In this document: piece after piece, positions 1-50,277 of the stretch
Numbering within the stretch: the stretch's first letter is position 1
Layout: each line of letters opens with the position of its first letter
NCBI RefSeq assembly: GCF_044368995.1
Contig: NZ_JBIPMS010000001.1
Span: 1-56,096 of the forward strand
Length of the DNA: 56,096 bases
Reading direction: 5' to 3'
Source of the DNA: Flavobacterium sp.
GTDB taxonomy: Bacteria; Bacteroidota; Bacteroidia; Flavobacteriales; Flavobacteriaceae
The notes under the pieces: generated by a model
Databases searched by the model: none
What the model was told of the DNA's origin: nothing
What the model saw: only the letters and a program-made list of their open reading frames with translations
Translations under genes and position numbers: made by a program

Positions 1-2
1 CA

Positions 3-1379: not shown

Positions 1380-4300
1380 GCTACTGTTACCGTAGGCGCA
1401 ATAAGTTCTACTTCAAATTCAAATGGTGCTACTATAGCTGCAGGCGAATTAAAACTTGCACCAGCCGATGCTTCTTATGGAGGTATTGTTACCACGGCAG
1501 ACCAAACTTTTACGGGTAATAAAACCTTTAATTCTAATTTAAATGGAAACGGATTAATTACTGGATTTGGTTTTGAAGCATATAGAATTCAAAATTCAAG
1601 CGGTTACTTTTCAGGGTATAATACAGATGGATCTACAAATACAGGATACCTACAATTTAATAGTGGTAATGATGTTACTTTAAGAGCGGAACAAAATAAT
1701 GCTCTTAAATTAGGTGCTGCGGGTCAAAATACATTAACGCTTGGAGCAGATCAAAAAGCGACTTTAAATGGAGCAATGGATATTTATGGAAATGCAACTA
1801 TTTATGGAAATACAACTGTAGGCGGCAATACTACTACTAATGGCAACACTAGTTCAAATGGATTAATTACTGGATTTAGTTTTGAAGCATATAGAATTCA
1901 AAATTCAAGCGGTTACTTTTCAGGGTTTAATACAGACGGAACTACAAGAACAGGATACCTACAATTTAATAGTGGTAATGATGTTACTTTAAAAGCGGAA
2001 CAAAATAATGCTCTTAACTTAGGTGCTGCGGGTCAAAATACATTAACGCTTGGAGCAGATCAAAAAGCGACTTTAAATGGAGCAATGGATATTTATGGAA
2101 ATGCAACTATTTATGGCAATACAACTGTAAGCGGCAATACTACTACTAATGGCAACACTAGTTCAAATGGATTAATTACTGGATTTAGTTCTGAAGCATA
2201 TAGAATTCAAAATTCAAGCGGATGGTTTTCAGGGTATAATACAGATGGATCTACAAGAACAGGATACTTACAATTTAATAGTGGTAATGATATTACTTTA
2301 AGAGCGGAACAAAATAATGCTCTTAACTTAGGTGCTGCGGGTCAAAATACATTAACGCTTGGAGCAGATCAAAAAGCGACTTTAAATGGAGCAATGGATA
2401 TTAATGGAAACACAACTATTAATGGAAACACAACTTCTAACTCATTTATAAAACAAAACGGTCTTTCAACTCAATATTTAATGGCTGATGGTTCGGTATC
2501 TAATGGTGCGGCAATGGGACTTCAAGGGTTACAAGGCGAAATGGGAATTCCGGGAGCTCCAGGAGAAATTGGACCACAAGGCCCAGCTGGAATTGACGGA
2601 GCAACTGGTGCAGTTGGACCTCAAGGAGAAATGGGACCTCAAGGGATACAAGGAGAAATGGGACCTCAAGGAATACAAGGAGAAATGGGACCTCAAGGAG
2701 AAATTGGACAACAAGGCCCTGCAGGAGTTGACGGAATGAATGGTGTTGATGGACCTCAAGGGGTACAAGGCCCACAAGGAGAAATTGGACAACAAGGTCC
2801 AGCAGGAATTGACGGAGCAACTGGTGCAGTTGGACCTCAAGGAGAAATGGGACCTCAAGGAATACAAGGAGAAATGGGACCTCAAGGAATACAAGGAGAA
2901 ATTGGACCACAAGGCCCAGCAGGAGTTGACGGAATGAATGGTGTTGATGGACCTCAAGGGGTACAAGGCCCACAAGGAGAAATTGGACAACAAGGTCCAG
3001 CAGGAATTGACGGAGCAACTGGTGCTAATGGCGAAGTTGGACCTCAAGGAATACAAGGAGAAATTGGACCACAAGGCCCAGCAGGAATTGACGGAATGAA
3101 TGGTGTTGATGGACCTCAAGGGGTACAAGGCCCACAAGGAGAAATTGGCCCACAAGGTCCAGCAGGAATTGACGGAGCAACTGGTGCTGATGGTGCAGTT
3201 GGACCTCAAGGCGAAATGGGACCTCAAGGCGAAATGGGACCACAAGGCCCAGCTGGAATTGATGGAACAAATGGTGTCGATGGTGCACAAGGACCACAAG
3301 GCCCAACGGCAGATCTTACAGGGTATGCAACTACATCTGATCTGAACATGTTGCAGTCTGATGTAATGTATAATCAGTCTCAGATATCAATGTTGCAGAA
3401 TGATGTATGGAACAACCAAATGATGTGGAATAATTATTATCAATCAGATATATCTATATTGCAGAGTGATGTATCGATGTTACAGTCTCAAATATCAATG
3501 TTGCAGTATGACATATGGAACAACCAAATGATGTGGAATAGTTATTATCAATCAGATATATATATGTTGCAGAGTGATGTATCGATGTTACAGAATCAGA
3601 TATCAACGTTGCAGTCGAATGTTTCTTCGAAAGAAGATGCGGCAAACAAATCTATTGATGTAACTTTGTCTGACACTACAAATGTTAAGTTTCCAACGGA
3701 ATTAGCAGTAAAAACCTATGTGGATGCTCAAATTGCTTCAGGGACTGTTACTGTAGGCGCAATAAATTCTTCTTCAAATTCATTTGGTGCTTCTATTACC
3801 GAAGGCGAGTTAAATCTTGCTCCAGCTGATGCAACTTATGGTGGTATTGTTACCATAGAAGACCAAACTTTTGCAGGAAATAAATCGTTTGTTTCGGATA
3901 TTACTGTAAACGGAATCAAAGTAGGAGCTGGAGGAACTGATTCATCAGCTTACGAAAATGTTGCTGTTGGAATTAGCTCACTAACGGCAAATACTTCCGG
4001 AAATCGTAATTCTGCTTTTGGACAAGAATCACTGTCTTTAAATACAATAGGAAACGAAAACACAGCTTATGGAGCGTATTCCTTACAATATAACACTTTG
4101 GGTTCTGAAAATAACGCCCTAGGAAAGTCGGCATTAGCAAATAATAGTTTGGGTAGTTATAATACATCAATCGGTGCTAATGCCCTTTATTTAAACACCT
4201 TAGGAAATAAAAATACTGCTATTGGTAATTATGCTTTATTTTCTAATGAAGTAGGTAATAATAACGTAGCAATTGGAAACGACTCAGGATTTGGTAATAC

Positions 4301-4814
4301 AGGTTATAATAATACATTTTTAGGAAACAATTCCAATTCTAATGGATTAATTTCAAATGCAACTGCCATTGGTTATCAAGCAATTGTTGTTGCGGATAAC
4401 ACCATTCAATTAGGAAATACAGATGTTACGGATGTTAAAACTAGTGGATCAGTAACGGCTAAATCCATAATTTCTTCTGGTAGAATGGTAATGAGTACAG
4501 CAACTATTGAATACTCTGAATTGAATAATTATGATGTTTCTAATGTTTCCATTCTTTTTGTAAGACCAGATTCAAGTTGGACAAGTATTTATGGTTTATC
4601 AGGGGGTGTTTTGGGTCAAGTTATTCATATTTATTCAGTTAATGATCAAACATTAAACTGTTGTACTGGTTTGTCGCTACATAATTTTAATAGCTCGAAT
4701 ACAGGCATACAAAAATTTGTGGCTCCAGGAGATATTAATATTGATTCGAATAAAAATACTACTTTGGTTTTTGACGGAACTTACTGGAGAGTTTCTAAAT
4801 TTGGGGGAATGTAA
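3..4814 (+). CDS. Giant collagen-like / tail-fibre-like surface protein, 5'-truncated (>=1603 aa visible)
   Basis: The frame of ORF 873..4814 is open from position 3 (GPQGLAGSNGTNGINGLN...) with no stop, so the true start lies upstream of the window. It contains Gly-X-Y tracts at 3-1379 and 2517-3308, 3x103-aa repeats, a heptad segment, N-x-A-x-G beta-roll-like repeats and a C-terminal globular domain. Confidence 0.9.
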   Translation, partial: GPQGLAGSNGTNGINGLNGAVGPQGLAGTNGTNGLDGAVGPQGPIGLTGATGPQGLAGTNGTNGLNGAVGPQGLQGPQGIAGTNGLDGAVGPQGPIGLTGATGSQGIPGIQGVAGPTGATGLQGLAGTNGLNGLNGAVGPQGLAGTNGTNGLDGAVGPQGPIGLTGATGPQGLAGSNGTNGINGLNGAVGPQGLAGTNGTNGLDGAVGPQGPIGLTGATGPQGLAGSNGTNGTNGINGINGLNGAVGPQGLQGIQGLDGAVGPQGIQGIQGIAGINGVDGAVGPQGIQGEMGPQGDIGQQGPAGIDGINGINGVDGAVGLQGIQGEMGPQGPQGEMGPQGPAGIDGATGANGEVGPQGIQGEMGPQGIQGEIGQQGPAGIDGMNGVNGAQGPQGEMGPQGPQGDIGQQGPAGIDGATGANGEVGPQGIQGEMGPQGPAGIDGTNGADGAQGPQGPAGSDATVTVGAISSTSNSNGATIAAGELKLAPADASYGGIVTTADQTFTGNKTFNSNLNGNGLITGFGFEAYRIQNSSGYFSGYNTDGSTNTGYLQFNSGNDVTLRAEQNNALKLGAAGQNTLTLGADQKATLNGAMDIYGNATIYGNTTVGGNTTTNGNTSSNGLITGFSFEAYRIQNSSGYFSGFNTDGTTRTGYLQFNSGNDVTLKAEQNNALNLGAAGQNTLTLGADQKATLNGAMDIYGNATIYGNTTVSGNTTTNGNTSSNGLITGFSSEAYRIQNSSGWFSGYNTDGSTRTGYLQFNSGNDITLRAEQNNALNLGAAGQNTLTLGADQKATLNGAMDINGNTTINGNTTSNSFIKQNGLSTQYLMADGSVSNGAAMGLQGLQGEMGIPGAPGEIGPQGPAGIDGATGAVGPQGEMGPQGIQGEMGPQGIQGEMGPQGEIGQQGPAGVDGMNGVDGPQGVQGPQGEIGQQGPAGIDGATGAVGPQGEMGPQGIQGEMGPQGIQGEIGPQGPAGVDGMNGVDGPQGVQGPQGEIGQQGPAGIDGATGANGEVGPQGIQGEIGPQGPAGIDGMNGVDGPQGVQGPQGEIGPQGPAGIDGATGADGAVGPQGEMGPQGEMGPQGPAGIDGTNGVDGAQGPQGPTADLTGYATTSDLNMLQSDVMYNQSQISMLQNDVWNNQMMWNNYYQSDISILQSDVSMLQSQISMLQYDIWNNQMMWNSYYQSDIYMLQSDVSMLQNQISTLQSNVSSKEDAANKSIDVTLSDTTNVKFPTELAVKTYVDAQIASGTVTVGAINSSSNSFGASITEGELNLAPADATYGGIVTIEDQTFAGNKSFVSDITVNGIKVGAGGTDSSAYENVAVGISSLTANTSGNRNSAFGQESLSLNTIGNENTAYGAYSLQYNTLGSENNALGKSALANNSLGSYNTSIGANALYLNTLGNKNTAIGNYALFSNEVGNNNVAIGNDSGFGNTGYNNTFLGNNSNSNGLISNATAIGYQAIVVADNTIQLGNTDVTDVKTSGSVTAKSIISSGRMVMSTATIEYSELNNYDVSNVSILFVRPDSSWTSIYGLSGGVLGQVIHIYSVNDQTLNCCTGLSLHNFNSSNTGIQKFVAPGDINIDSNKNTTLVFDGTYWRVSKFGGM
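1551..2402 (+). repeat. Three tandem 309-bp (103-aa) repeats, third one partial
   Basis: GGATTAATTACTGGATTT starts at 1551, 1860 and 2169. The unit reads GLITGF.FEAYRIQNSSGYFSGYNTDG...GYLQFNSGNDVTL.AEQNNAL.LGAAGQNTLTLGADQKATLNGAMDI. Confidence 0.95.
2517..3308 (+). repeat. Collagen Gly-X-Y tract 2 (88 triplets)
   Basis: Continuous GXY (GEM/GEI/GPQ/GID/GPA) from 2517 to 3308, with near-identical DNA blocks starting at 2721, 2919 and 3081. Confidence 0.95.
3375..3615 (+). repeat. 108-bp (36-aa) tandem repeat in coiled-coil-like stalk
   Basis: ATGGAACAACCAAATGATGTGGAATA occurs at 3407 and 3515. LQSDVSM/LQSQISM heptads surround WNNQMMWN.YYQ. Confidence 0.85.
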
Positions 4815-6195: not shown

Positions 6196-7215
6196 TTATA
6201 AGCTAGACTTAAATTGTTCTAAGAAACGAACATCGTTTTCATAAAACATTCTAATATCACCAATTTGGTATAATAACATGGCAATTCTTTCAATTCCCAT
6301 TCCAAAAGCGTATCCGGTATATTCGTTTGAGTCAATACCACAGTTTTTCAACACATTTGGGTCTACCATTCCGCAACCCATAATTTCTAACCAGCCTGTT
6401 CCTTTTGTAATTCGGTAATCAGTTTCGGTTTTCAATCCCCAATAAATATCTACTTCCGCACTGGGTTCTGTAAATGGAAAATAAGACGGACGCAATCTGA
6501 TTTTAGATTTTCCGAACATTTCTTTAGTAAAATATAAAAGCGTTTGTTTTAAATCGGCAAACGACACATTTTTATCAATATACAACCCTTCTACTTGGTG
6601 GAAAATACAATGCGAACGAGACGAAATAGCTTCGTTACGGAAAACCCTTCCAGGAGAAATGGTTCTAATAGGCGGTTGGTTGTTTTCCATATATCTCACT
6701 TGCACAGATGAGGTATGTGTTCGCAATAAAACATCTGGATTGGTTTGTATAAAAAACGTATCCTGCATGTCACGAGCGGGATGGTATTCCGGTAAATTTA
6801 ATGCGGTGAAATTATGCCAATCATCTTCAATTTCTGGCCCTTCAGAAACGTTAAACCCAATGGTTGAAAAAACATCTAAAATTTGATTTTTAACTAGAGA
6901 AATAGGGTGACGAGAACCAATATGAATTGGACTTCCAGGGCGAGACAAATCTCCAAATAGGCTTATAGTTTCCGTTTTATTTTCAAGAAGTTCCTGAATG
7001 GTTTTTACTTTTTCTTCTGCCGTGTTTTTTAACTCGTTTATTACCTGACCAAATTCTTTCTTTTGTTCGTTAGGAACGTTTTTAAATTCGGCAAAAAAAT
7101 CTTTCAATAAACCTTTACTTCCTAAGTATTTAATACGAAATTCTTCTAAAGTACTTTTGTCTTCAGTTTGGAAAGCTTTAGCTTCTTCAATATGTTGTTT
7201 TATCTTGTGTATCAT
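6196..7215 (-). CDS. pheS: Phenylalanine--tRNA ligase alpha subunit
   Basis: Motifs HPARDMQDTF, LLRTHTS, FHQVEGL, YFPFTEPS, GYAFGMGIERIAML. Confidence 0.98.
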   Translation of the reverse strand: MIHKIKQHIEEAKAFQTEDKSTLEEFRIKYLGSKGLLKDFFAEFKNVPNEQKKEFGQVINELKNTAEEKVKTIQELLENKTETISLFGDLSRPGSPIHIGSRHPISLVKNQILDVFSTIGFNVSEGPEIEDDWHNFTALNLPEYHPARDMQDTFFIQTNPDVLLRTHTSSVQVRYMENNQPPIRTISPGRVFRNEAISSRSHCIFHQVEGLYIDKNVSFADLKQTLLYFTKEMFGKSKIRLRPSYFPFTEPSAEVDIYWGLKTETDYRITKGTGWLEIMGCGMVDPNVLKNCGIDSNEYTGYAFGMGIERIAMLLYQIGDIRMFYENDVRFLEQFKSSL

Positions 7216-7270
7216 TATAAAAAGGTAATAGTCTGTAAATTTATGTATTTTTTAGCGATTAGTCTATAAA

Positions 7271-7357
7271 AAAGTAATTAGTGAAAAGTAAAAAGTGATT
7301 AGCAAGTTTAATTTAAAGGTTTTCACTATTGACTTTTTACTTACCACTAGTTACTCA
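7271..7357. repeat. Inverted 7-bp-period array (hairpin)
   Basis: Left arm AAAGTAA TTAGTGA AAAGTAA AAAGTGA TTAGCAA (7271-7305). Right arm TCACTAT TGACTTT TTACTTA CCACTAG TTACTCA (7323-7357) is an approximate reverse complement. Confidence 0.75.
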
Positions 7358-13913: not shown

Positions 13914-14462
13914 TTATTCTAGCTTTTGCTTTTCAGATAATATTTCATTTTTAAAATCGTGACAATAAATAAAATTGTCTATATTTTCAAATAAATGAAC
14001 CACTTCATTTCTTAATAAGTGAGTTGGTTTATCTGAAAGAATTGCTTTGTAGGAAGAAAAAGAAAAGCTTTTATAATCTATGTCCAAGTGATGTTTTGGA
14101 TTTAGATGAATATACTGAATTACATTTTTTAAATATTCTTCATTTTCAATTTGTATTCTTTTGAAATGTTTTTCAAATAAACTTCCAGTTCTATTATTTT
14201 GTTTGTTAAATGCTTTTGCATAAGCGTTAAATAAATTCGATAGTGCTTGTGTCACTTCTTTTTCATTATTAATTTGAAACACAAAATGAAAATGATTATC
14301 CATTAAGCAATAGGCAAAAGTTTCTACTTTACGTTCTAAATATTTCAAATATAGTTTTAGAAAGTAGCGTTTATTTTCATCAGTATTGAAAATAGTTTCA
14401 CCATTAATACCTCTGTTATAGATGTGATAAACTTTGTCTTTTTCTAAAATTTCAAGTTTCAT
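13914..14462 (-). CDS. REP-associated tyrosine transposase-like protein (Y1_Tnp / HUH superfamily)
   Basis: N-terminal YHIYNRG, 'AYCLMDNHFH' (HUH motif), 'RTGSLFE..FK' and catalytic Tyr in 'YIHLNP'. ATG start at 14462 is preferred. Confidence 0.9.
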   Translation of the reverse strand: MKLEILEKDKVYHIYNRGINGETIFNTDENKRYFLKLYLKYLERKVETFAYCLMDNHFHFVFQINNEKEVTQALSNLFNAYAKAFNKQNNRTGSLFEKHFKRIQIENEEYLKNVIQYIHLNPKHHLDIDYKSFSFSSYKAILSDKPTHLLRNEVVHLFENIDNFIYCHDFKNEILSEKQKLE

Positions 14463-14542
14463 TTGGCGTTTATTTTTCAACTATAAGGTTTCAATAACCT
14501 TTTTGGTCTTGCTTATTATTGGTTTATTTTTATAATTTTATA

Positions 14543-23949: not shown

Positions 23950-25110
23950 TTATAATGTTCCTCTTTTGGCTTGTTCTCTTTCGATAGACTCAAAAAGCGC
24001 TTTAAAGTTTCCTGCTCCAAAACCTCTAGCTCCCATTCTTTGAATAACTTCGAAGAAAAGAGTAGGTCGGTCTTCAATTGGTTTGGTAAAAATTTGTAAC
24101 AAATACCCTTCTTCATCCGCATCAATCATAATACCTAATTTTTGAAGTTCGTTGATGTCTTCTTTAAATTTCGACATGTGATCTTTCAATCTTTCTGGAA
24201 TGGCATCATAATAAGCTTGTGGCGGTGTGCTTAAAAATTCAATTCCACGAGAACGCATATCAGCAACTGTTGTAATAATATCATCCGTAGCAACTGCAAT
24301 ATGTTGCACGCCTTCGCCTTCATAGAAATCTAAATATTCTTCAATTTGAGAACGTTTTTTTCCTTCAGCGGGTTCGTTAATTGGAAATTTAATTCTTCCA
24401 TTGCCATTACTCATTACTTTCGACATCAATGCCGAATAATCTGTAGTAATTTGTTTGTCGTCAAAAGAAAGAAAATTAACAAATCCCATTACATCTTCAA
24501 ACCATTTTACAGCTTCATTCATTCTGTTCCAGCCCGTATTTCCAACCATGTGGTCAATAAACTTTAAACCAACTGGTTTTGGATTATAATCAGATTTCCA
24601 TTCTTGATAACCAGGCATGAAAATTCCGTTGTAATTTTTTCGTTCTACAAAAACAAACACCGTTTCTCCATAGGCACCATAAATTCCTGCACGAACTACT
24701 TCGCCATCTTCGTCTTTTTCAACAACTGGCTCAAAATAAGATTTTGCTCCACGTTTTGTGGTTTCTTCAAATGATTTTCTGGCATCTTCTACCCAAAGTG
24801 CGATAACTTTTACACCATCACCATGTTTTTTTACGTGTTCGCCAATGGGTGAATTGCTGTTTAAAGCCGTTGTTAATACTAAACGTATTTTGTCTTGTTT
24901 CAATACATAAGACGCTCTGTCTCTTACGCCAGTTTCTAATCCGGCATAAGCCAATGATTGAAAACCGAAAGCTGTTTTGTAAAAATGAGCAGCTTGTTTA
25001 GCATTACCCACATAAATTTCCACGTAATCTGTTCCTAATAAAGGCAAGAAATCTTGTGCGCCTTCAAATATTTTTTCTAAGCCGTATTCGACTGATTTTA
25101 AATCTTTCAT
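23950..25110 (-). CDS. hppD: 4-hydroxyphenylpyruvate dioxygenase
   Basis: Motifs IDHMVGN, FPINEP, SQIEEYL, GVQHIA, LLQIFTKP, FFEVIQR, GFGAGNFKALFESIE. Confidence 0.97.
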   Translation of the reverse strand: MKDLKSVEYGLEKIFEGAQDFLPLLGTDYVEIYVGNAKQAAHFYKTAFGFQSLAYAGLETGVRDRASYVLKQDKIRLVLTTALNSNSPIGEHVKKHGDGVKVIALWVEDARKSFEETTKRGAKSYFEPVVEKDEDGEVVRAGIYGAYGETVFVFVERKNYNGIFMPGYQEWKSDYNPKPVGLKFIDHMVGNTGWNRMNEAVKWFEDVMGFVNFLSFDDKQITTDYSALMSKVMSNGNGRIKFPINEPAEGKKRSQIEEYLDFYEGEGVQHIAVATDDIITTVADMRSRGIEFLSTPPQAYYDAIPERLKDHMSKFKEDINELQKLGIMIDADEEGYLLQIFTKPIEDRPTLFFEVIQRMGARGFGAGNFKALFESIEREQAKRGTL

Positions 25111-25126
25111 ATTAATTTGTGATTTT

Positions 25127-25140
25127 AATAATTAGCGAAT
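25127..25140. repeat. Inverted-repeat arm downstream of four-helix-bundle gene
   Basis: AATAATTAGCGAAT is the exact reverse complement of ATTCGCTAATTATT at 25614-25627. Confidence 0.8.
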
Positions 25141-25167
25141 AGAAAATTGGTTTGTACTTGCTAATTT

Positions 25168-25542
25168 CTATGTTCGTATATTATTTTTCGTTGTGCTTAT
25201 TATTTTGTTTAACATTTTTATTATTCCATTTAATTTATCAATTAACCCTTCCGGATTAGGATAATTTTCTAAATTTTCACACAGAAAAAGCCAGTATTCT
25301 GTTTCGTCAGCTTCTTTTAATGAAACTTTAAGTTTGTGAACAAAATCAGCTTTGCTTTCTGCATTTTGAGCTTCTTTGATATTTGCACCAACAGATGTTC
25401 CAGAACGAACTAATTGTTTTGCTATTATATATTTTCTTTTTTCATCAAGCAATTCGGCATATTTTATTACCATTAACGCAAACTCAAAAGATTCTTTCAA
25501 GATAGGGTTGTTTTGATATTTTGAACTGTTTGTGAATTTCAT
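25168..25542 (-). CDS. Four-helix-bundle protein (23S rRNA-IVS protein / Avd-like family)
   Basis: Family signature 'QLVRSGTSVGANIKEAQ.AESKADFVHKLKVSLKEADETEYWL'. 124 aa. Confidence 0.92.
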   Translation of the reverse strand: MKFTNSSKYQNNPILKESFEFALMVIKYAELLDEKRKYIIAKQLVRSGTSVGANIKEAQNAESKADFVHKLKVSLKEADETEYWLFLCENLENYPNPEGLIDKLNGIIKMLNKIISTTKNNIRT

Positions 25543-25548
25543 TTAAAA

Positions 25549-25628
25549 AATTAGTTAATAAACGGTTTAGTTAATTATCGAATTAAATCATTCGCTAATT
25601 CGCTCAATTATAAATTCGCTAATTATTC
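25549..25628. repeat. 8-bp-period degenerate array filling the hmgA / four-helix gene gap
   Basis: AATTAGTT AATAAACG GTTTAGTT AATTATCG AATTAAAT CATTCGCT AATTCGCT CAATTATA AATTCGCT AATTATTC. Confidence 0.75.
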
Positions 25629-26780
25629 CACCCAAGATTTATAATATTTCCCATCATCTAATCCCATTGCAGCTTCTGTAACCATTAATGGACGGAACGT
25701 GTCAACCATAACTGCTAATTCTTTAGTTTCGGTATGGCCAATGCTTCTTTCCATAGCGCCTGGTGCTGGTCCGTGAGGAATTCCTTTTGGATGTAAAGTG
25801 ATGTGACCTTGTTCGATGTTGTTTCTACTCATGAAATCCCCATCAACATAATACAACACTTCATCAGAATCAATATTGCTATGATTATATGGAGCAGGTA
25901 TTGATTTTGGATGATAATCGTATAATCTTGGCACAAAAGAACATACTACAAATGTTGCTGTTTCAAAAGTTTGGTGAATAGGTGGCGGCAAATGTACACG
26001 ACCTGTAATGGGTTCAAAATTGTGAATTGAAAATCCGTACGGAAAATTGTAACCGTCCCAACCGATAACATCAAAAGGATGAGTGGCATAAACCACTTCG
26101 TGCATCATACCTTCTTTTTTGATTTTGATTAAGAAATCACCTTTTTCGTCATGCGTTTCTATTTCAGAGGGTAATTTAAAATCCCTTTCACAAAATGGCG
26201 CATGTTCTAAATGCTGCCCGGAATCATTTTTATATCTTTTTGGGGTATAAAAAGGTGTATAAGATTCTACATAAAATAAGCGATTGTCTTCAGAATTGAA
26301 ATCAATTTGATAAATCATTCCGCGTGGAATAATTAAGTAATCGCCATATTCAAAATCTATATTTCCCATCATGGTTCTAAGTTTTCCAGAACCTTTATGG
26401 ATAAATATCATTTCGTCTGCATCGGCGTTTTTATAAAAATAATTACGCAATGATTTTTTTGGTGCAGCTAATCCGATAATACAATCTTTATTAACAAGCA
26501 TATCTTTTCTGCTTTCTAAAAAATCGTCGGCGGGTTGTAATTCAAAACCTTTTAATAATAGTGATTTTATGTTTTTACCAATGGCTATTTTTGGTTCAAC
26601 AGAATAAGATTTGGTAATTTCTTTAACCTGTGTTGGTCTATGAACATGGTATAATAGTGAAGAATGTCCATGAAAACCTTCAGTACCAAAAAGTTGTTCG
26701 TAGTATAACCCGCCGTTTGGGTTTTCAAACTGGATATGTCGTTTGTGAGGGATTTCTCCTAATTTATGATATATTGGCAT
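25623..26780 (-). CDS. hmgA: Homogentisate 1,2-dioxygenase
   Basis: Motifs NADADE, HPFDVIGWDG, HLPPPIH, PYNHSNIDSDE, TLHPKGIPHGP, ELAVMVDTF. Confidence 0.95.
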   Translation of the reverse strand: MPIYHKLGEIPHKRHIQFENPNGGLYYEQLFGTEGFHGHSSLLYHVHRPTQVKEITKSYSVEPKIAIGKNIKSLLLKGFELQPADDFLESRKDMLVNKDCIIGLAAPKKSLRNYFYKNADADEMIFIHKGSGKLRTMMGNIDFEYGDYLIIPRGMIYQIDFNSEDNRLFYVESYTPFYTPKRYKNDSGQHLEHAPFCERDFKLPSEIETHDEKGDFLIKIKKEGMMHEVVYATHPFDVIGWDGYNFPYGFSIHNFEPITGRVHLPPPIHQTFETATFVVCSFVPRLYDYHPKSIPAPYNHSNIDSDEVLYYVDGDFMSRNNIEQGHITLHPKGIPHGPAPGAMERSIGHTETKELAVMVDTFRPLMVTEAAMGLDDGKYYKSWVE

Positions 26781-26788
26781 TTTTTTTT

Positions 26789-26851
26789 AATTAGATAATT
26801 AGACAATAAAATAATTAGTTAATTTGCAAATTACATATTATATAATTAGCA
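26789..26851. repeat. 8-bp-period array immediately upstream of hmgA ATG
   Basis: AATTAGAT AATTAGAC AATAAAAT AATTAGTT AATTTGCA AATTACAT ... AATTAGCA. Confidence 0.75.
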
Positions 26852-28522: not shown

Positions 28523-30772
28523 TTAAAAAACGAATCCTAAATTCACCCAAAAAGCGGAAAAATTGGATTCAGGAGACCAAGTATATTTCATTTCAATTGG
28601 CCCTATTAATGTTTCTAATCCGTAACCCAATCCAAATCCGGTATTTGAGGGTTTGTTAAACCATGTTTTTGTGGCATTAAAAATAAAATCGCCCACAATT
28701 GAAGCGTTATAGGTTAAGTTAATGTGATTTTTTTTGTAAAATTCGTAATCAAAAGTCGCACTACTTTTAATATAGGAATTTCCACTTATACTTAAAAAAT
28801 CATATCCGTAAAAAGGGATGATATTAGCACTGTCTTTGAATCCAGTTCCTCCTAAAGCAAAATCAAAATAGGGCAATGTAGAATGACCTATTTTAAAACC
28901 AATTTCGTTTTTAAAGACTACAGAGAAGTTTTTTATTGGAGCAACAGCAATTCCTAAATCTGTTTTAGAGATAGAAAATTTTGAAAATTGATTGTTATAA
29001 TCTGACGAACTAAAATAATAATTAAAGTTACTCTTTAAATACCAACCTTTTTTCGGAAAATATTTATCATCAAAAGTATCATAATTAAGAAAACCAACTA
29101 ACGAAAAATAGTTACTGTTTTCGATTACTTTATTGGCTTTTGACAAATTTTCTGATTTTAAAAAGAGGTTTTGAAATTCTAATCCGCCACCGATATTAAA
29201 TTTTCTTAAGAAAATAGTTTGTAGAAACACTTTGGTGTTGACACTTGAATAATCTAAATTTATCTTATCAAACGCGTTGCTTAGATAACTTTGAATTCCA
29301 AATGCTGTATTTACATTTTTATTAAAATTATTTAAACTGGAGTTAATTCCGAAGCTAAAATTATAACCATTATCTATCAAGTAATTGAAATCATACCTGA
29401 AATTATCGCCTAAAATTAAATCTAAAGAAACCATGTCGTTTTTTGAGATTATTTTTTTTTGAGAGATATTAATTAATGCGGCACTTTTATACAATTCATC
29501 ATAATGAAGTGCGAATTTTAAATAAGTATTTATCTTATTTTCCCTTAAACTAATAAAAATATCTTTTTCGTTAAATTGATATTTTAATGAACTAAAGTTT
29601 TGTGTGTTGCTTAAATTTTGAATACCGTTTTGAAAATCTTCAAAGCTTACTTTTGAGTTGGGTTTAAATCTTAATTTTCCTAAAACATAAGCGCGGGTAT
29701 AATTTTTTAATTCTGTAAAAGCAATATTTCCGATAAAAATGGAATCTTTAACAAGCTTTAACTTAGGTTTTTGATATGCTTTGTTTTCAAATTTTAGTAA
29801 TTCTGATAAAAAATTTCTCGTAGCATACTCCCCATTTTGAATGATTTTTTTTCCATTTTCGAAGGATAGAACAGAATACCCTTTTATTTCAGGTTTGATA
29901 TAAATATTAGTAAGTTGGCGCTTACTTTTCATTTGAGATTGTGTATAGAAATTAGAAATTTGTCCAAAAATAGTAGTAATACCTTGCAACTCATTTCGGT
30001 CTTTCAATTCCTCTTGTACATCAACACCTATAATAAATTCGGCACCCAATTCTTTAAGTCTTTCAATAGGATAATTATTTGTAACACCGCCATCAACTAA
30101 TAGTTTTCCTTCAATTTCAATGGGATAAAAAATACTTGGAACAGAACTACTTGCTATTAATGCTTGTGGAAAAATTCCTTTATTTAATAAGATTTCTTCG
30201 CCAGTTTCGATATCTGTAGCCATACAGAAAAACGGAATTGGCAATTTTTTAAAATCTCGTGTGTTTCTAACGTGATAAGTTATTTTTGATAAAAAATTGT
30301 AATTGTAAAACCCTTTTGAAAGGGCATTTGGCGTTTCGAGCTTTAATTTTTTAAAGGGTAGAGACAAAGCATAAATATCATCATTTCTTTTATTGAAAAG
30401 TAACTTAGATTTTCGGGGGATGTTATCTTGTACTAAATCGTCAAATTCTAATGTTTTAAATATAGAATCTAATTGTTTACCTGTATATCCAGAAGCGTAT
30501 AATCCACCTACAATAGCGCCCATACTGGTACCTCCAATGTAATCTATTTTTATACCTAAAGAATCAATTACTTTTAGAACACCAATATGTGACAATCCTT
30601 TTGCGCCTCCACCAGAAAGCACCAATCCTATTTTAGGCTTTTGGATACTGTCTTGAGCAATTGTGTAAGCAGGCAAAAGTAAGCAGGCAAAAGTAAAAAG
30701 TATAAAACAAGAAAATGTACCACGAATGTGATTCACTTTGCTTTTTTTACTTTTTACTTGTTTCTTTATCAC
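28523..30772 (-). CDS. Patatin-like phospholipase with C-terminal beta-barrel (PlpD-like)
   Basis: LSGGGAKG, GTSMG nucleophile and DGG motifs, then a POTRA/Omp85-like C-terminus ending in Phe. GTG start. Confidence 0.9.
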   Translation of the reverse strand: MIKKQVKSKKSKVNHIRGTFSCFILFTFACLLLPAYTIAQDSIQKPKIGLVLSGGGAKGLSHIGVLKVIDSLGIKIDYIGGTSMGAIVGGLYASGYTGKQLDSIFKTLEFDDLVQDNIPRKSKLLFNKRNDDIYALSLPFKKLKLETPNALSKGFYNYNFLSKITYHVRNTRDFKKLPIPFFCMATDIETGEEILLNKGIFPQALIASSSVPSIFYPIEIEGKLLVDGGVTNNYPIERLKELGAEFIIGVDVQEELKDRNELQGITTIFGQISNFYTQSQMKSKRQLTNIYIKPEIKGYSVLSFENGKKIIQNGEYATRNFLSELLKFENKAYQKPKLKLVKDSIFIGNIAFTELKNYTRAYVLGKLRFKPNSKVSFEDFQNGIQNLSNTQNFSSLKYQFNEKDIFISLRENKINTYLKFALHYDELYKSAALINISQKKIISKNDMVSLDLILGDNFRYDFNYLIDNGYNFSFGINSSLNNFNKNVNTAFGIQSYLSNAFDKINLDYSSVNTKVFLQTIFLRKFNIGGGLEFQNLFLKSENLSKANKVIENSNYFSLVGFLNYDTFDDKYFPKKGWYLKSNFNYYFSSSDYNNQFSKFSISKTDLGIAVAPIKNFSVVFKNEIGFKIGHSTLPYFDFALGGTGFKDSANIIPFYGYDFLSISGNSYIKSSATFDYEFYKKNHINLTYNASIVGDFIFNATKTWFNKPSNTGFGLGYGLETLIGPIEMKYTWSPESNFSAFWVNLGFVF
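30665..30766. repeat. Inverted 7-bp-period array inside patatin signal-peptide coding region
   Basis: GTAAGCAGGCAAAA x2, GTAAAAA, GTATAAA (30665-30706) versus TTCACTT TGCTTTT TTTACTT TTTACTT GTTTCTT (30732-30766). Confidence 0.75.
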
Positions 30773-30775
30773 GAG

Positions 30776-32563
30776 TTATTCTTTTTTGTAAAAGTCGGAA
30801 ATTTTTTTTGCTTTTGAAAGGCCAATTACTGAAGAAATTTCAGATTCAGTTGCTTCTTTTACTCTTTTTACGCTTTTAAAGTGCGAAATTAAGGCTATCA
30901 TAGTTTTTTCTCCAATGCCAGGAATACTTTCTACGGAAGAATTTAATGCCGATTTACTTCTTTTGTCGCGATGATGAGTAATTCCGAAGCGGTGCGCTTC
31001 GTTTCGTAATTGTTGAATAATTTTTAGCGTTTCCGATTTTTTATCCAAATATAAAGGAATAGGATCGTCCGGATAAAACAATTCTTCTAATCGTTTTGCA
31101 ATACCAATAATGGCGATTTTACCACGCAAACCTAAATCTTCTAAACTTTTTAATGCAGATGATAATTGCCCTTTTCCTCCATCAATAATAATAAGTTGGG
31201 GTAACGATTCATTTTCGTCTAGTAATCTTTTATATCTTCTATACACTACTTCTTCCATTGAAGCAAAATCATTTGGGCCTTCAACGGTTTTAATATTGAA
31301 ATGTCTGTAGTCTTTTTTACTGGCTTTTCCATCTTTAAATACCACACATGCTGCTACTGGATTTGTTCCTTGAATATTAGAGTTGTCAAAACATTCAATA
31401 TGTCTAGGTTCCATAGAAAGGCGTAAATCCTTTTGCATTTGCGCCATAATTCTGTTGGTATGCCGCTCTGGATCTACAATTTTAATTTGTTTTAATTGGT
31501 CGAATCTGTAATATTTTGCATTGCGTTCAGATAAGTTTAAAATCTCTTTTTTATCTCCTAATTTAGGAACAGTAATTCTGATTTTATCCCCTAAATCAAC
31601 TTCAAAAGGCACTATAATTTCTGTTGAAGTTAAAAAGAAACGCGCCCTGATTTCTACAATTGCTAATTCTAATAATTCTTGATTGGTTTCATCTAATTTT
31701 TTCTTTAACTCTAAAGTGTGCGAGCGAATTATAGCTCCGTGAGAAATCTGTAAAAAATTAACATACGCCATCGTTTCGTCTGAAATAATGGAAAACACAT
31801 CAATATTGGTAATTTTAGGATTTATTATTGTTGATTTCGCTTGATAGTTTTCTAAAACTTCAATTTTATCTTTAATTTTTTGGGCTTCTTCAAACTTCAT
31901 TTCTGAGGCCAAATGTTGCATGTGATTTTTGAAATCTTTTAGACTTTCTTTGAAATTTCCTTTTAAAATTTCTCGTATAGCCGTAATTTGTTTTTGGTAA
32001 TTTTCTTGCGTTTCGTATCCTTCACAGCCGCCCTTACAATTTCCAATATGGTATTCTAAACATACTTTATATTTTTCTGCTCGGATGTTTGATAGCGATA
32101 AATCAAAATTACAAGTTCGTAAAGAATATAATTCTCTAATTAATTCTAATAACGTGTTTACGGTTTTAAAACTGGTGTAGGGCCCAAAATATTCCGAGCC
32201 GTCTTTTATCATTTTCCGAGTAGAAAATACCCTCGAGAACGTTTCTTTTTTAATACAAATCCAAGGATAGGTTTTATCATCACGAAGCAGAACATTGTAT
32301 CTGGGCTGTAGTGTTTTAATAAGACTGTTTTCTAACAATAACGCATCGGTTTCTGTAGGAACAACAATATGTTTAATAGTAACAATTTTTTTTACAAGCA
32401 CAGAGGTTTTGTAATTCTCGTGGTTTTTTGTAAAATAGGATTGCACCCGTTTTTTTAAATTTTTTGCTTTCCCAACATACAAAATCTTATTTTCTTTGTC
32501 ATAATACTGGTATACACCAGGATTTTCAGGTAAGGTTTGAATTTGTAGTTCTAGTGGTGTCAT
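30776..32563 (-). CDS. uvrC: Excinuclease ABC subunit C
   Basis: GIY-YIG (PGVY...YVGKAKNLKKRV), IECFDNSN, IIDGGKGQL and a C-terminal HhH. Confidence 0.98.
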   Translation of the reverse strand: MTPLELQIQTLPENPGVYQYYDKENKILYVGKAKNLKKRVQSYFTKNHENYKTSVLVKKIVTIKHIVVPTETDALLLENSLIKTLQPRYNVLLRDDKTYPWICIKKETFSRVFSTRKMIKDGSEYFGPYTSFKTVNTLLELIRELYSLRTCNFDLSLSNIRAEKYKVCLEYHIGNCKGGCEGYETQENYQKQITAIREILKGNFKESLKDFKNHMQHLASEMKFEEAQKIKDKIEVLENYQAKSTIINPKITNIDVFSIISDETMAYVNFLQISHGAIIRSHTLELKKKLDETNQELLELAIVEIRARFFLTSTEIIVPFEVDLGDKIRITVPKLGDKKEILNLSERNAKYYRFDQLKQIKIVDPERHTNRIMAQMQKDLRLSMEPRHIECFDNSNIQGTNPVAACVVFKDGKASKKDYRHFNIKTVEGPNDFASMEEVVYRRYKRLLDENESLPQLIIIDGGKGQLSSALKSLEDLGLRGKIAIIGIAKRLEELFYPDDPIPLYLDKKSETLKIIQQLRNEAHRFGITHHRDKRSKSALNSSVESIPGIGEKTMIALISHFKSVKRVKEATESEISSVIGLSKAKKISDFYKKE

Positions 32564-32598
32564 TTTTAGTATGCAGTGTTCAGTTTTTAGTATTCAGT
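32564..32598 (-). repeat. Five 7-bp units abutting uvrC start codon
   Basis: Sense strand: ACTGAAT ACTAAAA ACTGAAC ACTGCAT ACTAAAA ATG. Confidence 0.75.
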
Positions 32599-32694
32599 AA
32601 TTTAACTTGAGAAAGCCTCACAAAAATAGCGAAAAACAATTGGATTTAGCATAAAGTAATTTTTTATTACTTTAGCCAAAAAGTAAAACACGTA

Positions 32695-33657
32695 ATGCAC
32701 AAGGAAATTACTATTTTTAACGAAACTATTTTGCCAGGAAAAAGTAAAACCATCAATATGCAAATTGGGAAATTGCATACGATGACCGATTTACACATTC
32801 CAATTATTGTAGAAAGAAGTAATAAAGAAGGTCCGGTAGTGTTGTTAACTGCTGGTTTACATGGCGACGAGATTAACGGAACTGAAATTGTAAGGGAATT
32901 AATTGTAAAAAAAATTAACAAACCAAAACGAGGTACTATTATCTGTATTCCTGTAATTAATATTTTTGGATTTGTCAATCAAACTAGAGAATTTCCAGAT
33001 GGTAGAGATTTAAACCGAATTTTTCCTGGAAGCAAAACAGGCTCTTTAGCGAGTCAATTTGCTTATTATATTTTAAAAGAAATTATACCAAATATAGATT
33101 ATGCAATAGATTTTCATGCTGGTGGCGCCCAAAGATTTAATGCGCCACAAATACGAATTGTTCCTAATAACGATGAGTTAAAAACACTTTCAGATGTATT
33201 TGGTGCTCCGTTTACATTATATTCTAATAATATTTCTGGTTCGTTTAGAAGCTCATGTGATAAAATGAATGTAAAAATGTTATTATTTGAAGGAGGAAAA
33301 TCGGTTGATATTAATAATGCAGTTACTAAAGAAGCTGTAGAAGGAACCAAACGGGTTTTGGCCCATTTTGGGATGCTAAAGACGAAACACGAAATTTCAA
33401 AACCGCACCAAACTATATATATTGAAAAGTCGGATTGGATTCGGGCTAATTTTTCTGGGATGTTTCATGGGATAAAACAAATTGGAAGTTTTGTAACAAA
33501 AGGCGAATTGTTAGCCACAATTTCAGATCCTTTTGGAAAGGTGAGTCATAAATTAAAAGCACCACATGCAGGCTATTTAATAAATGTAAATGATGCCCCA
33601 ATTGTTTATCAAGGCGATGCCGTTTTTCATATTTCAAAAACCTTAGAAGATGAATAA
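32695..33657 (+). CDS. Succinylglutamate desuccinylase/aspartoacylase (M14) family protein
   Basis: Motifs GLHGDEING, DLNRIFPG, IDFHAG, LFEGG. Confidence 0.9.
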   Translation: MHKEITIFNETILPGKSKTINMQIGKLHTMTDLHIPIIVERSNKEGPVVLLTAGLHGDEINGTEIVRELIVKKINKPKRGTIICIPVINIFGFVNQTREFPDGRDLNRIFPGSKTGSLASQFAYYILKEIIPNIDYAIDFHAGGAQRFNAPQIRIVPNNDELKTLSDVFGAPFTLYSNNISGSFRSSCDKMNVKMLLFEGGKSVDINNAVTKEAVEGTKRVLAHFGMLKTKHEISKPHQTIYIEKSDWIRANFSGMFHGIKQIGSFVTKGELLATISDPFGKVSHKLKAPHAGYLINVNDAPIVYQGDAVFHISKTLEDE

Positions 33658-45283: not shown

Positions 45284-46033
45284 TTAGGATTTGTTTTCAA
45301 TTTTATCTTGTAAAGCAAAAAAAGCTCTTTTTGCAGCTGTTTCTTCTGCTTTTTTCTTCGAAGTGGCTCTGGCTTTGCTAATTACCTGATTGTCCATTAC
45401 TAATTTTACGCCAAAGTATTTTACGCCTTCTTTACCATCATCTTCAAAAATATCAAATTTGAAAGTAATTTTTTCTTTCTGACACCATTCAATAATTACA
45501 CTTTTATAGCTAATTACTTTTCCTTCTAAGCGCTCAATATCTATATATTGTTTGATGATTTTCTCCTGAATAAATTTTTCGCAATAGGTATAACCTTTAT
45601 CTAAGTAAATAGCCCCAATAAAAGCTTCGCATAAATTTCCATGTATATTATCCCCAAAATGGGAAGGACTTACTTTACTTTCGATAAATTGGACTAAGTT
45701 GAAATCTTTACCTAACTCATTTAAATGCTCTCTACTTACAATTTTAGATCTCATTTTCGTTAAGTAACCTTCGTCGCCTGTTGGAACTTTTCTGTATAAA
45801 TGAGCAGCAATTACACTACCTAACATAGCGTCGCCTAAAAACTCTAAACGTTCATAACTAATTGGGAATCCGTTTTCATCTGTTTGGTTAGAGGAACGAT
45901 GTGTGAAAGCATGTTTGTAATAAATTTCTGTATTGGGTTTAAATCCTAATATTTTGGTAATTTTTTCAAAAAAAACCCCGTCTTGATTAGAAGAAGGGGG
46001 TTTGTTCAATATTTTATTTAAAATGCGACGCAT
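45284..46033 (-). CDS. rnc: Ribonuclease III
   Basis: Signature ERLEFLGDA, EAFIGAIYLDKG and a dsRBD ending 'SKKKAEETAA'. Confidence 0.96.
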   Translation of the reverse strand: MRRILNKILNKPPSSNQDGVFFEKITKILGFKPNTEIYYKHAFTHRSSNQTDENGFPISYERLEFLGDAMLGSVIAAHLYRKVPTGDEGYLTKMRSKIVSREHLNELGKDFNLVQFIESKVSPSHFGDNIHGNLCEAFIGAIYLDKGYTYCEKFIQEKIIKQYIDIERLEGKVISYKSVIIEWCQKEKITFKFDIFEDDGKEGVKYFGVKLVMDNQVISKARATSKKKAEETAAKRAFFALQDKIENKS

Positions 46034-47963: not shown

Positions 47964-48527
47964 ATGAAGAAGATTGTGCTTTTTGCTTCTGGAAACGGTT
48001 CTAATGCCGAAAATATTATGGCATATTTTGACATGTCTAATGCAGTTTCAGTTGTTGGTGTATTTTCGAACAATTCTGAAGCTAAAGTAATTGAAAGAGC
48101 TAAAAAATTTAAAATCCCAACTTTTGTTTTCAATAAAAAGGAACTTTCAGAGAATACGGTTTTAAGCCAGCTGAAGCAATTGCAACCAGATTTAATTGTG
48201 TTAGCAGGTTTTTTATTAAAGTTTCCCATTCATATTATTAACGAATTTCCAAGTAAAGTGATTAATATTCATCCAGCTTTGTTGCCTAATTATGGCGGAA
48301 AAGGCATGTTTGGCATAAACGTACACAACGCGGTATTAAAAAATAAAGAAAAAGAAACAGGAATTACTATACACTATGTAAACGAACATTTTGACGAAGG
48401 CGAATTTATTTTTCAAGCCAATGTAACTATTGAAAATTGTACAACTGCAGATGAAATCGCAAAAAAAATTCACGAATTGGAAATGGAACATTTTCCGAAA
48501 GTTATTGAGAGATTTTTAGAAGGTTAG
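47964..48527 (+). CDS. purN: Phosphoribosylglycinamide formyltransferase
   Basis: Motifs FASGNGSN, LAGFL, INIHPALLP, GITIHYV...DEG. Confidence 0.95.
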   Translation: MKKIVLFASGNGSNAENIMAYFDMSNAVSVVGVFSNNSEAKVIERAKKFKIPTFVFNKKELSENTVLSQLKQLQPDLIVLAGFLLKFPIHIINEFPSKVINIHPALLPNYGGKGMFGINVHNAVLKNKEKETGITIHYVNEHFDEGEFIFQANVTIENCTTADEIAKKIHELEMEHFPKVIERFLEG

Positions 48528-48602
48528 ACTTCATAGTTAGTCAAACCGCAATATTTTCTTAATTTCAACATCTAAAAATCTAACCTTCTAACAATCTAAT
48601 TA
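48510..48602. repeat. Inverted 8-bp-period (TTAGA/TCTAA) array spanning purN stop to rnhA start
   Basis: TTAGAAGGTTAGA (48516-48528) is the reverse complement of TCTAACCTTCTAA (48579-48591). AGATTTTTAGA (48510-48520) is the reverse complement of TCTAAAAATCT (48571-48581). Confidence 0.8.
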
Positions 48603-48609
48603 ATCAAAA

Positions 48610-49089
48610 ATGCCCTACCAAGTTCACATTTATACAGATGGCGCTGCCAAAGGAAATCCAGGCCCTGGCGGTTATGGTGTGGTAATGGAAATGGTAGGTT
48701 CGCCTTATAAAAAAGAATTTTTTGAAGGATTTAGGCATACTACTAATAACAGAATGGAATTATTAGCTGTAATTGTAGGTTTAGAAAAATTGAAAACGCC
48801 TAAAACCACTGTTTTGGTAGTTTCAGACTCTAAATATGTTGTAGATTCAGTAGAAAAAGGTTGGGTGTTTGGATGGGAGAAAAAATACTTCAAAGACAAA
48901 AAAAACCCCGATTTATGGATGCGCTTTTTAAAAATTTATAGGCAACATCAAGTGAAATTCATGTGGATTAAAGGCCATAACAACCATCCTCAAAACGAAC
49001 GCTGCGACCAATTAGCCGTGATGGCCTCGCAACAAAAAAAATTAAATATTGATACCTTTTACGAAACGGAAGAACAGAAATTGTTATAA
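48610..49089 (+). CDS. rnhA: Ribonuclease HI
   Basis: Motifs IYTDGA.KGNPGPGG, TTNNRMEL, SDSKY, KNPDLW, WIKGH, NERCDQLA. Confidence 0.97.
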   Translation: MPYQVHIYTDGAAKGNPGPGGYGVVMEMVGSPYKKEFFEGFRHTTNNRMELLAVIVGLEKLKTPKTTVLVVSDSKYVVDSVEKGWVFGWEKKYFKDKKNPDLWMRFLKIYRQHQVKFMWIKGHNNHPQNERCDQLAVMASQQKKLNIDTFYETEEQKLL

Positions 49090-50189: not shown

Positions 50190-50277
50190 AATGCGCCAAT
50201 TGATTAATGTGTCAATGTGCCAATTAGATAATTATTCTTAATGGCAAATTGAAAATTGGCTAATTATCTAGTTGCTT
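50190..50277. repeat. Inverted 8-bp-period array overlapping recX stop
   Basis: AATGCGCC AATTGATT AATGTGTC AATGTGCC AATTAGAT AATTATTC ... AATTGGCT AATTATCT. CAATTAGATAATTA (50221-50234) and TAATTATCTAGTTG (50261-50274) form a 13/14 inverted match. Confidence 0.8.

Follow-up and report, generated by a model that had tools for sequence, protein, structure and literature searches.

The four-helix proteins of the PF05635 family are very common and include two solved structures, with no function assigned to them, and the papers that deal with the family, as far as their text is accessible, place it in the inserts of CPR rRNA genes (PMC11270868) and relate it to Avd, the accessory protein of DGRs (PMC10053308). 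In Coxiella's intervening sequence (IVS), according to the available portion of PMC4990558, tandem heptamers in variable number (GACAGAT, two to three units) lie in the 5' arm of a 28-bp stem that RNase III cuts at the first repeat, and the enclosed ORF is seemingly unexpressed and decaying; excision of such rRNA IVSs proceeds without ligation (accessible text of PMC4990558 and PMC11270868). The Avd pentamer, as described in the part of bioRxiv 2023.10.23.563531 that is available, binds a stem-loop with bases flipped into crevices between protomers. Elsewhere such four-helix genes are merely listed, at least in the accessible sections of PMC5524665 and PMC8700078.

A second body of work concerns intergenic heptamer arrays, an old puzzle for which the available texts offer no mechanism. 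The accessible parts of PMC4692102 report gene-less heptamer arrays, with the same stop/start polarity as described below, in Xanthomonas and Nostoc, a preference for four units in Xanthomonas, inverted pairing of 70 of the 186 GGGAATC sets of Xcc, and a discussion that ascribes heptamer repeats to polymerase slippage. One of these sets (number 15, four units) overlaps the start of xcc0516, where the available table lists it uncommented and with no inverted partner. TAACTGA arrays are found in Beggiatoaceae, cyanobacteria and Bacteroidetes, and a translational role was proposed for them (PMC4679880, accessible portion); in Flavobacterium, structure and upstream adenines tune initiation (PMC6847099, accessible portion). 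No paper linking the PF05635 family to periodic arms outside rRNA was found in the open literature, in which subscription journals are mostly missing.

Here we consider a PF05635 gene enclosed by inverted octamer arrays in the spacer between hmgA and hppD of a Flavobacterium sp. The original prediction, made from the sequence, had seen in it an mRNA intervening sequence or a transposase-less mobile cassette, perhaps the gene-carrying form of the empty periodic hairpins across the window, and a candidate for an undescribed system. We lean towards the view that the gene and its arrays form a mobile cassette without an enzyme of its own, the predicted ring of its product likely binding its own repeat arms.

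The cassette and its protein

The window, that is, the whole analysed stretch of 56,096 nt, belongs to a 1.9-Mb genome that is 90.7% complete and whose nearest named relatives are freshwater Flavobacterium genomes; its features are collected in Table 1. The 14-nt inverted repeat around the gene is exact, the upstream copy ending one base earlier than first proposed (25628), and the 14-mer has just these two copies in the whole genome. The hmgA stop codon lies within the upstream copy and the downstream copy stops 16 nt short of the hppD ATG, both as predicted, and the predicted 8-nt periodicity at the upstream copy is present in degenerate form (4.4 copies, 65% matches). The inner reverse copy and the forward remnant listed in Table 1 had escaped the original prediction. 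Of 614 control genes from this genome, 1.6% equal or exceed the inverted-arm score of the cassette gene, a shared-6-mer test of the arms gives p=0.015, and the arm duplex amounts to -20.5 kcal/mol versus -9.8+/-2.9 for shuffles. Folded as a 541-nt segment the cassette is modestly better than shuffles (z -2.1), with the arms paired with each other in MFE and centroid alike. The stem of the arms is AU-rich and has 14 bp plus 5 bp.

Table 1. Features of the window, with positions in window coordinates
Feature	Position	Strand	Remarks
hmgA, homogentisate dioxygenase, divergent form	25623-26780	-	Upstream host gene; stop codon inside 5' arm
5' arm on mRNA	25567-25627	-	Degenerate 8-nt array, AATTAGCG-type, about 4 copies; exact 14-mer 25614-25627, reverse complement of AATAATTAGCGAAT
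Inner reverse copy	25567-25584	-	Within upstream flank, after 5' array
124-aa four-helix-bundle ORF	25168-25542	-	PF05635 / TIGR02436; purifying selection (from dN/dS)
3' arm on mRNA	25127-25167	-	Forward remnant 25156-25167, then reverse-complement arm with exact 14-mer AATAATTAGCGAAT at 25127-25140 (+)
hppD, 4-hydroxyphenylpyruvate dioxygenase	23950-25110	-	Downstream host gene; ATG at 25110
Lone array, same octamer family	26788-26849	-	3'-arm orientation, just before hmgA start codon
Gene-less hairpin, same octamer family	50206-50273	.	Forward array then reverse array; strand unassigned
Gene-less hairpins or single arrays, other words	7215-7350, 30690-30790, 32555-32700, 48520-48615		AGTAA, TCAGT and TTAGA types
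Y1 (IS200-like / RAYT-like) transposase gene	13914-14480		PF01797, 34.5 bits
Collagen-like (Gly-X-Y) repeat gene, long	1-4814		Three 309-nt internal repeats
RNase III gene	45548-45919		Single match in genome

DNA runs from other studies contain near-identical contigs spanning each of the cassette junctions (X2 record 4; X3 records 12 and 13), so the locus is no assembly chimera. In a near-identical strain (run X5) the 3' flank carries a 24-nt (3x8) tandem duplication at window position 25112, an expansion of the array in phase with its period. The hppD product scores above the TIGR01263 (4HPPD) cut-off; HmgA is above the cut-off for HgmA_N but reaches 70 bits against a cut-off of 511 for TIGR01015, which marks it as a divergent form. 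Searches found no long dispersed repeat within 24900-25900, no Rfam match in the window and no terminator-like site in the arms, and matches to sigma-70-type promoters in the cassette, or to a Bacteroidetes promoter pattern at this locus, were at chance level.

The 124-aa product matches PF05635 (82.1 bits, cut-off 33.8) and TIGR02436 (97.2 bits, cut-off 24) and is predicted with a pLDDT of 95 to form four long helices (residues 13-34, 38-59, 64-90 and 98-120). The family assignment and the Avd-like fold of the original prediction are borne out by these scores and by structural matches of the predicted fold to 2RLD (TM 0.78), 2GSC (TM 0.80) and Avd itself (4DWL, TM 0.64, E 0.2), the closest solved relative being BT_0352 (2RLD, five chains; E 2.5e-25, 43% identity). 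A four-copy model scored 0.68, against 0.00 for the best control; the mark applied to this score is attained by 20 of 30 solved pairs and by 1 of 23 single chains. Runs agreed in at least 97% of contacts at a pLDDT of at least 86; four copies rather than five were modelled, and the score was likely helped by memory of 2RLD. At the level of such models, self-association of the protein is supported. Values of dN/dS between 0.04 and 0.12 in eight of nine cassette-gene pairs (the ninth being saturated) show, as far as substitution patterns tell, a gene under purifying selection; Q43, S50, E57 and E80 hardly vary, whether in the window's clade or beyond it, and the predicted pI is 8.9.

PF05635 exceeds its cut-off in all 15 Flavobacterium genomes and in 33 of the 41 Bacteroidota genomes searched. 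The family member described here is the single ORF of the cassette, so that no transposase is encoded by the element. Nor was a catalytic partner identified in the 90.7%-complete genome: a PF00078 search returned no reverse transcriptase, be it one acting in trans, and three Y1 transposase genes lie elsewhere, two of them with flanks that are palindromic and non-periodic.

Filled and empty alleles of the spacer

HppD was found in 183 of 200 relatives within the genus, and 80 junctions were fetched (the 20 closest, the rest chosen mostly for long contigs), which do not form a random sample. In all 80 of these Flavobacterium relatives hmgA lies upstream of hppD, the junction holding the cassette in 11 (three of them frameshifted), another gene in a further 11 and no ORF in 58, among which L016 and L049 carry a gene-less octamer hairpin. 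The gene is accordingly not fixed at this locus, filled alleles being scattered over the HppD tree (a quick tree, as are all HppD trees used here) and missing from the two nearest relatives. A role in tyrosine catabolism is given low weight because 69 of the 80 relatives do without the gene.

The junction is a hot spot for unrelated inserts. Across L009-L088 it holds, in labels assigned by eye, a cysteine-rich membrane-protein gene in 11 of the 80 relatives, along with REP-like palindromes, 9-nt CGCAAAG-type hairpins and CCCCCTTTGGGGG-type hairpins. HmgA of the same loci forms one group near 70% and one near 90% identity, a division out of step with HppD similarity that suggests recombination across the junction. 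Given such a hot spot, ordinary recombination could explain the swapping of cassettes with no role for the protein.

The nearest relative of the window, L009, is empty and differs from it by 1.1% of the DNA in hppD and 3.4% in hmgA. The filled L011 is at 8.6% and 7.6%, respectively, in these flanks and at 5.0% in the cassette gene, for which dS is 0.23 as compared with 0.54 for hppD. An old spacer of 55-57 nt is common to L009, L010 and L012 and recognisable in more distant species too; by eye it has been replaced, not interrupted, and has left no remnant in the filled allele. Window and L011 have in common the cassette and an hppD start one codon shorter than in the nearest empty relatives, while at hmgA positions -16, -19 and -22 the window agrees with L009 and L010 and not with L011, so that, for an L011-like donor, the exchange would have its left boundary among the final 15 nt of hmgA and its right boundary within about 85 nt of hppD. 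A search of the flanks for a tract co-converted from a donor like L011 was negative, 43 of 44 informative hppD sites grouping the window with the empty L009.

These comparisons show that at the hmgA-hppD junction the whole stop-to-start spacer was exchanged, not added to. The simplest history has the cassette gained once on the branch leading to the window; the empty allele may instead have been restored repeatedly. Over 43 filled loci the cassette tree conflicts with the HppD tree, and one nine-member HppD clade holds two cassette lineages (AU p=3e-46 for a group picked after both trees had been seen).

Arms, arm words and gene-less hairpins

The source genome has eight PF05635 genes, and inspection by eye finds short-period arrays upstream and their reverse complements downstream of all eight, each with a word of its own; by an ungapped arm score five of the eight stand out (group p=2e-4 for inverted and 0.33 for direct matches) and three are not distinct. 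The survey was widened to 116 loci, comprising these eight, 57 from profile searches (mostly the best per genome), 40 more that were fetched and 11 from the hmgA-hppD junctions. Inverted arms at p<=0.01 flank 64 of the 116, as opposed to 4 of 155 operon-internal control genes, with 55 of 89 loci inside the genus and 9 of 27 outside it; at p<=0.05 the count rises to 86, so that 52 loci miss the stricter threshold and 30 the laxer one. Direct matches at p<=0.01 occur at 16 loci and 6 controls, and at p<=0.05 at 27 loci. Related loci in this set are not independent, and automatic boundaries are wrong at some of them, so the inverted-arm counts are probably lower bounds. The expectation that flanks of paralogues would carry inverted arrays is in this way upheld, and together with the absence of fixation at hmgA-hppD it supports a mobile cassette without its own transposase. 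Neighbours on both sides are co-oriented with the gene at 108 of the 116 loci; for ten loci with odd neighbours an Rfam search gave no match and hence no rRNA context.

Among the nearest relatives of the cassette protein in GTDB (the best 80 of 360), the arms have period 8 in 76, are inverted at p<=0.01 in 45 and give a direct-repeat signal in 20, while 41 sit at hmgA|hppD, across families. A model of circle integration, with the gene between two complete hairpins, suits a minority of loci, as the direct-repeat signal is confined to 16 of 116 and 20 of these 80. In the octamer clade the arms follow the register AATKWGNN with 5.5 and 5.1 bits, compared with 2.2-2.3 for shuffled units (68 upstream and 69 downstream arms of 76 loci, namely those that passed a score floor), and this register is shown to be constant throughout the clade, two of its positions changing in concert in the upstream and downstream arms. 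The median number of copies per arm is 4.8-4.9 (IQR 4.4-6.3), near five in a distribution that is broad and subject to the score floor. Heptamer arms have a weaker T-N-A-G core (2.9 and 2.7 bits against 2.2-2.3). No constant distance between the register and stop or start codons was found, the offsets being spread with modes at -2 and 3.

Arms of the same locus pair better on average than swapped ones (-25.7 versus -19.8 kcal/mol, p 1e-4, 33 non-redundant of 43 loci), the own arm being the best partner in just 4 of the 33 and the window ranking 11th. In 12 Flavobacterium loci own arms were never the best partner, and concerted change of the arms, invisible there, was seen solely in the wider set of 33.

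The 104 intact family genes occupy 57 sites. Arm words are common to 11 of 13 different-site pairs with at least 70% protein identity, as against about 1% of pairs below 55%; they follow the protein tree (Mantel r 0.19, p 0.001 for arm-word and protein similarity), and the mean arm similarity of paralogues in the same genome, 0.05, is near that of unrelated pairs (0.04). Gene and arm word are thereby shown to travel together between sites and lineages, and the gene-plus-arms unit to be exchanged at one site and found at many, the copy at hmgA-hppD being one instance of a general design.

In the source genome inverted 9-nt arrays of the same design also flank a gene of another protein family (contig C31:2218-2599), which we take to be GxxExxY-like. 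At another locus that by eye is type I restriction-like (L141), the arms enclose two genes, a forward heptamer array standing upstream of the preceding gene and a reverse array after the four-helix gene.

Hairpins of this kind also occur without a gene. A periodic hairpin is present in 72 of the 874 spacers that do not adjoin a PF05635 gene, where 4.3 are expected (44 versus 0 with a stricter score), and many of these bear words of the PF05635 paralogues of the source genome. An octamer profile finds 65 arrays in the genome and 13 in shuffles. Its pairs run forward-then-reverse in nine cases, at seven places, and never reverse-then-forward, and its arrays respect the reading direction, 21 forward arrays following stops and 10 reverse ones preceding starts as compared with 4 and 1 the other way round. 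With the octamer hairpins of L016 and L049 at the junction itself, this genome-wide abundance supports the idea that the cassette is the gene-carrying form of the empty hairpins.

The abundance of the same words without any gene could instead mean that slippage or another element has produced the arms as common repeats of the whole genome, and that four-helix genes survive in such spacers as passengers, their protein not recognising them. Polymerase slippage has been invoked for heptamer repeats (PMC4692102, accessible part), the in-phase expansion in the X5 strain would suit it, and the 9-mer arrays around the presumed GxxExxY-like gene indicate that an unrelated protein can occupy the same kind of setting. 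Against it, period and word follow the protein clade across sites and genomes and not the genome in which they lie, 76 of the best 80 relatives keep period 8, the register is fixed, and such arms are rare (4 of 155) around other operon-internal genes. We hold this account to be quite improbable.

The polarity of the arrays and the number of spacers with hairpins speak for a different reading, host post-transcriptional control, in which each paralogue would bind its own hairpin family in operon spacers and set translation or stability downstream, its own operon included, with exchange as a secondary matter. It can draw on the strong purifying selection, on the 41 of the best 80 relatives at one junction, and on the published roles of structure and upstream adenines in Flavobacterium initiation (PMC6847099) and of TAACTGA arrays in translation (PMC4679880, proposed), each as given in the accessible text. 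An operon without the gene in 69 of 80 relatives and with a frameshifted one in 3 of 11 filled alleles sits badly with such control, as do host operons with no common function and a single site taken by different cassette lineages with different words; copies inside coding frames and in rRNA make little sense as regulators. We regard it as unlikely. Persistence of the clade at hmgA|hppD (41 of the best 80) does fit a local function as well, and this persistence, together with the many unrelated inserts at the junction, keeps both the regulator and the passenger alive as readings.

Probable read-through, proposed transfer and comparison with known systems

Of 24 listed runs, 8 were examined, four being metatranscriptomes and four DNA, all of them as contigs from which ends, strand and level are unreadable. 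The RNA library X21 contains contigs that cover the cassette gene and its two arms and stem from a relative about 91% alike; one of them extends 33 nt into hmgA. This shows presence in an RNA library and is not proof of a transcript; low cover over the cassette gene in X19 and X20 has no evidential weight. A joint that skips the cassette (25104->25623) occurs in the RNA runs X20 and X22 and equally in the DNA run X5, so it represents the empty allele, and splicing as an explanation of these reads was rejected.

A different window on removal is opened by copies that lie within genes. In another Bacteroidota genome a PF05635 cassette with heptamer arms is nested in another frame of a DNA-methylase gene (PF01555; L122:1130-3316, minus strand), and nested copies are found at the same site in methylase genes of two divergent lineages (L122, L266, L267, L273 and L278). 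The methylase has homologues in 14 of 251 genomes searched, four nested with the host frame open, five empty and five unscorable; between two anchors two nested copies have 153 and 159 residues, compared with 16 in the five empty homologues, and one of the four nested genes is broken by a stop. Since the host frame stays open across the nested cassette, and an open alternative frame is seen in none of 178 other family genes, the cassette is, at least at those loci, translated through and not removed.

A true mRNA intervening sequence, whose stem would be cut out and its flanks re-joined or bypassed by the ribosome so that the operon message is restored, is very improbable in this light. The skipping joint in X5 matches empty alleles, the four stop-free host frames point to read-through translation, rRNA IVSs are excised without ligation, and the stem of the window has 14 bp plus 5 bp where that of Coxiella has 28 bp (both precedents from the accessible text of the papers cited above). 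This part of the original prediction, removal from the mRNA with re-joining, consequently finds no support. RNase III cleavage of the AU-rich 14+5-bp stem is uncertain, and cleavage without re-joining is compatible with the mobile-cassette explanation. The available portions of the B. thetaiotaomicron transcriptome papers, PMC10994844 among them, hold no processing data for BT_0352.

Under the preferred explanation, a mobile cassette without its own enzyme, spread between strains at an occupied site would take place as short-tract allele replacement by host recombination, through short stretches of homology, either in the flanks or between arms that share a word. The cassette might reach new sites by recombining into gene-less hairpins that carry its word, and an empty hairpin would remain where the loop is lost. 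By analogy with stem-loop binding and flipped bases in Avd, a pentamer may bind about five repeat units, one per subunit, and its binding to the arms could promote or protect transfer. On the mRNA, pairing of the arms would extrude the gene as a loop and set the stop codon of the upstream gene close to the start of the downstream one, keeping the cost low with no splicing, and the paired stem would overlap the region that tunes initiation in Flavobacterium (PMC6847099, accessible part). ORF-bearing rRNA IVSs might then be the case in which such a cassette landed in an rRNA helix.

A more far-reaching proposal, tentative and in our estimate somewhat doubtful, is that four-helix proteins stand to periodic 7-9-nt intergenic hairpins as RAYT does to REPs, with each five-membered ring recognising its own word with about one unit per subunit and driving the copying of gene-carrying and gene-less hairpins alike into stop-to-start spacers, coding loops and rRNA helices. 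If true, it would define a class of mobile element without its own nuclease or polymerase and would account for the IVS protein, known for 30 years, as well as for the heptamer and octamer arrays of Bacteroidota, Xanthomonas, cyanobacteria and Beggiatoaceae. The tie between clade and word names a candidate ligand (AATKWGNN in about five copies), for which the words of the paralogues are built-in negative controls, and a single junction offers natural filled, hairpin-only and empty alleles.

The claim of an undescribed system holds in part. Heptamers in the arm of the Coxiella IVS and gene-less heptamer hairpins in Xanthomonas are already in print, as the accessible portions of the papers cited above show, while a link between family and arms was not found in print. 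This analysis contributes the tight limits of the tract replaced between sister genomes, the constancy of the register and the observation that a row of the published Xanthomonas table touches xcc0516.

RAYT proteins are Y1/HUH nucleases, and REPs are short palindromes. The REP/BIME system with its RAYT resembles the cassette in that one gene is flanked by small repeats that are also scattered gene-less through intergenic DNA; in the window the protein is without a recognised catalytic fold and the arms are periodic arrays. DGRs also replace their target by a short tract. With their Avd (PDB 4DWL, 8UB7) the cassette has in common a four-helix fold, a pentamer in relatives and a gene beside a structured RNA, as far as the accessible sources describe them, but its neighbours are hmgA and hppD, no reverse transcriptase was found in the 90.7%-complete genome, no long dispersed repeat that might serve as template or variable repeat was found within 24900-25900, and identity to Avd is 11%. 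BT_0352 (2RLD) and Xcc0516 (2GSC), the closest solved relatives, are five-chain structures with no nucleic acid by their titles. The intergenic heptamer arrays of PMC4692102 and PMC4679880 stand after stops and before starts, as here, with no mechanism known; in the available text GGGAATC and TAACTGA arrays are read as G-quadruplexes or regulator sites and are not linked to four-helix genes. The ORF-bearing IVSs of 23S rRNA (the S23p IVS of Coxiella burnetii, and Leptospira), in so far as their descriptions are accessible, enclose a gene of this protein family in a loop closed by a terminal stem, with tandem short repeats in the 5' arm and a sporadic, horizontally acquired distribution. The cassette differs from them in its setting in an mRNA spacer instead of an rRNA gene, its period of 8, its 14+5-bp stem, the purifying selection on its gene and the many paralogues and gene-less hairpins around it. 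The cassette is, then, like an IVS in architecture and spread, but it is no rRNA IVS, DGR or IS.
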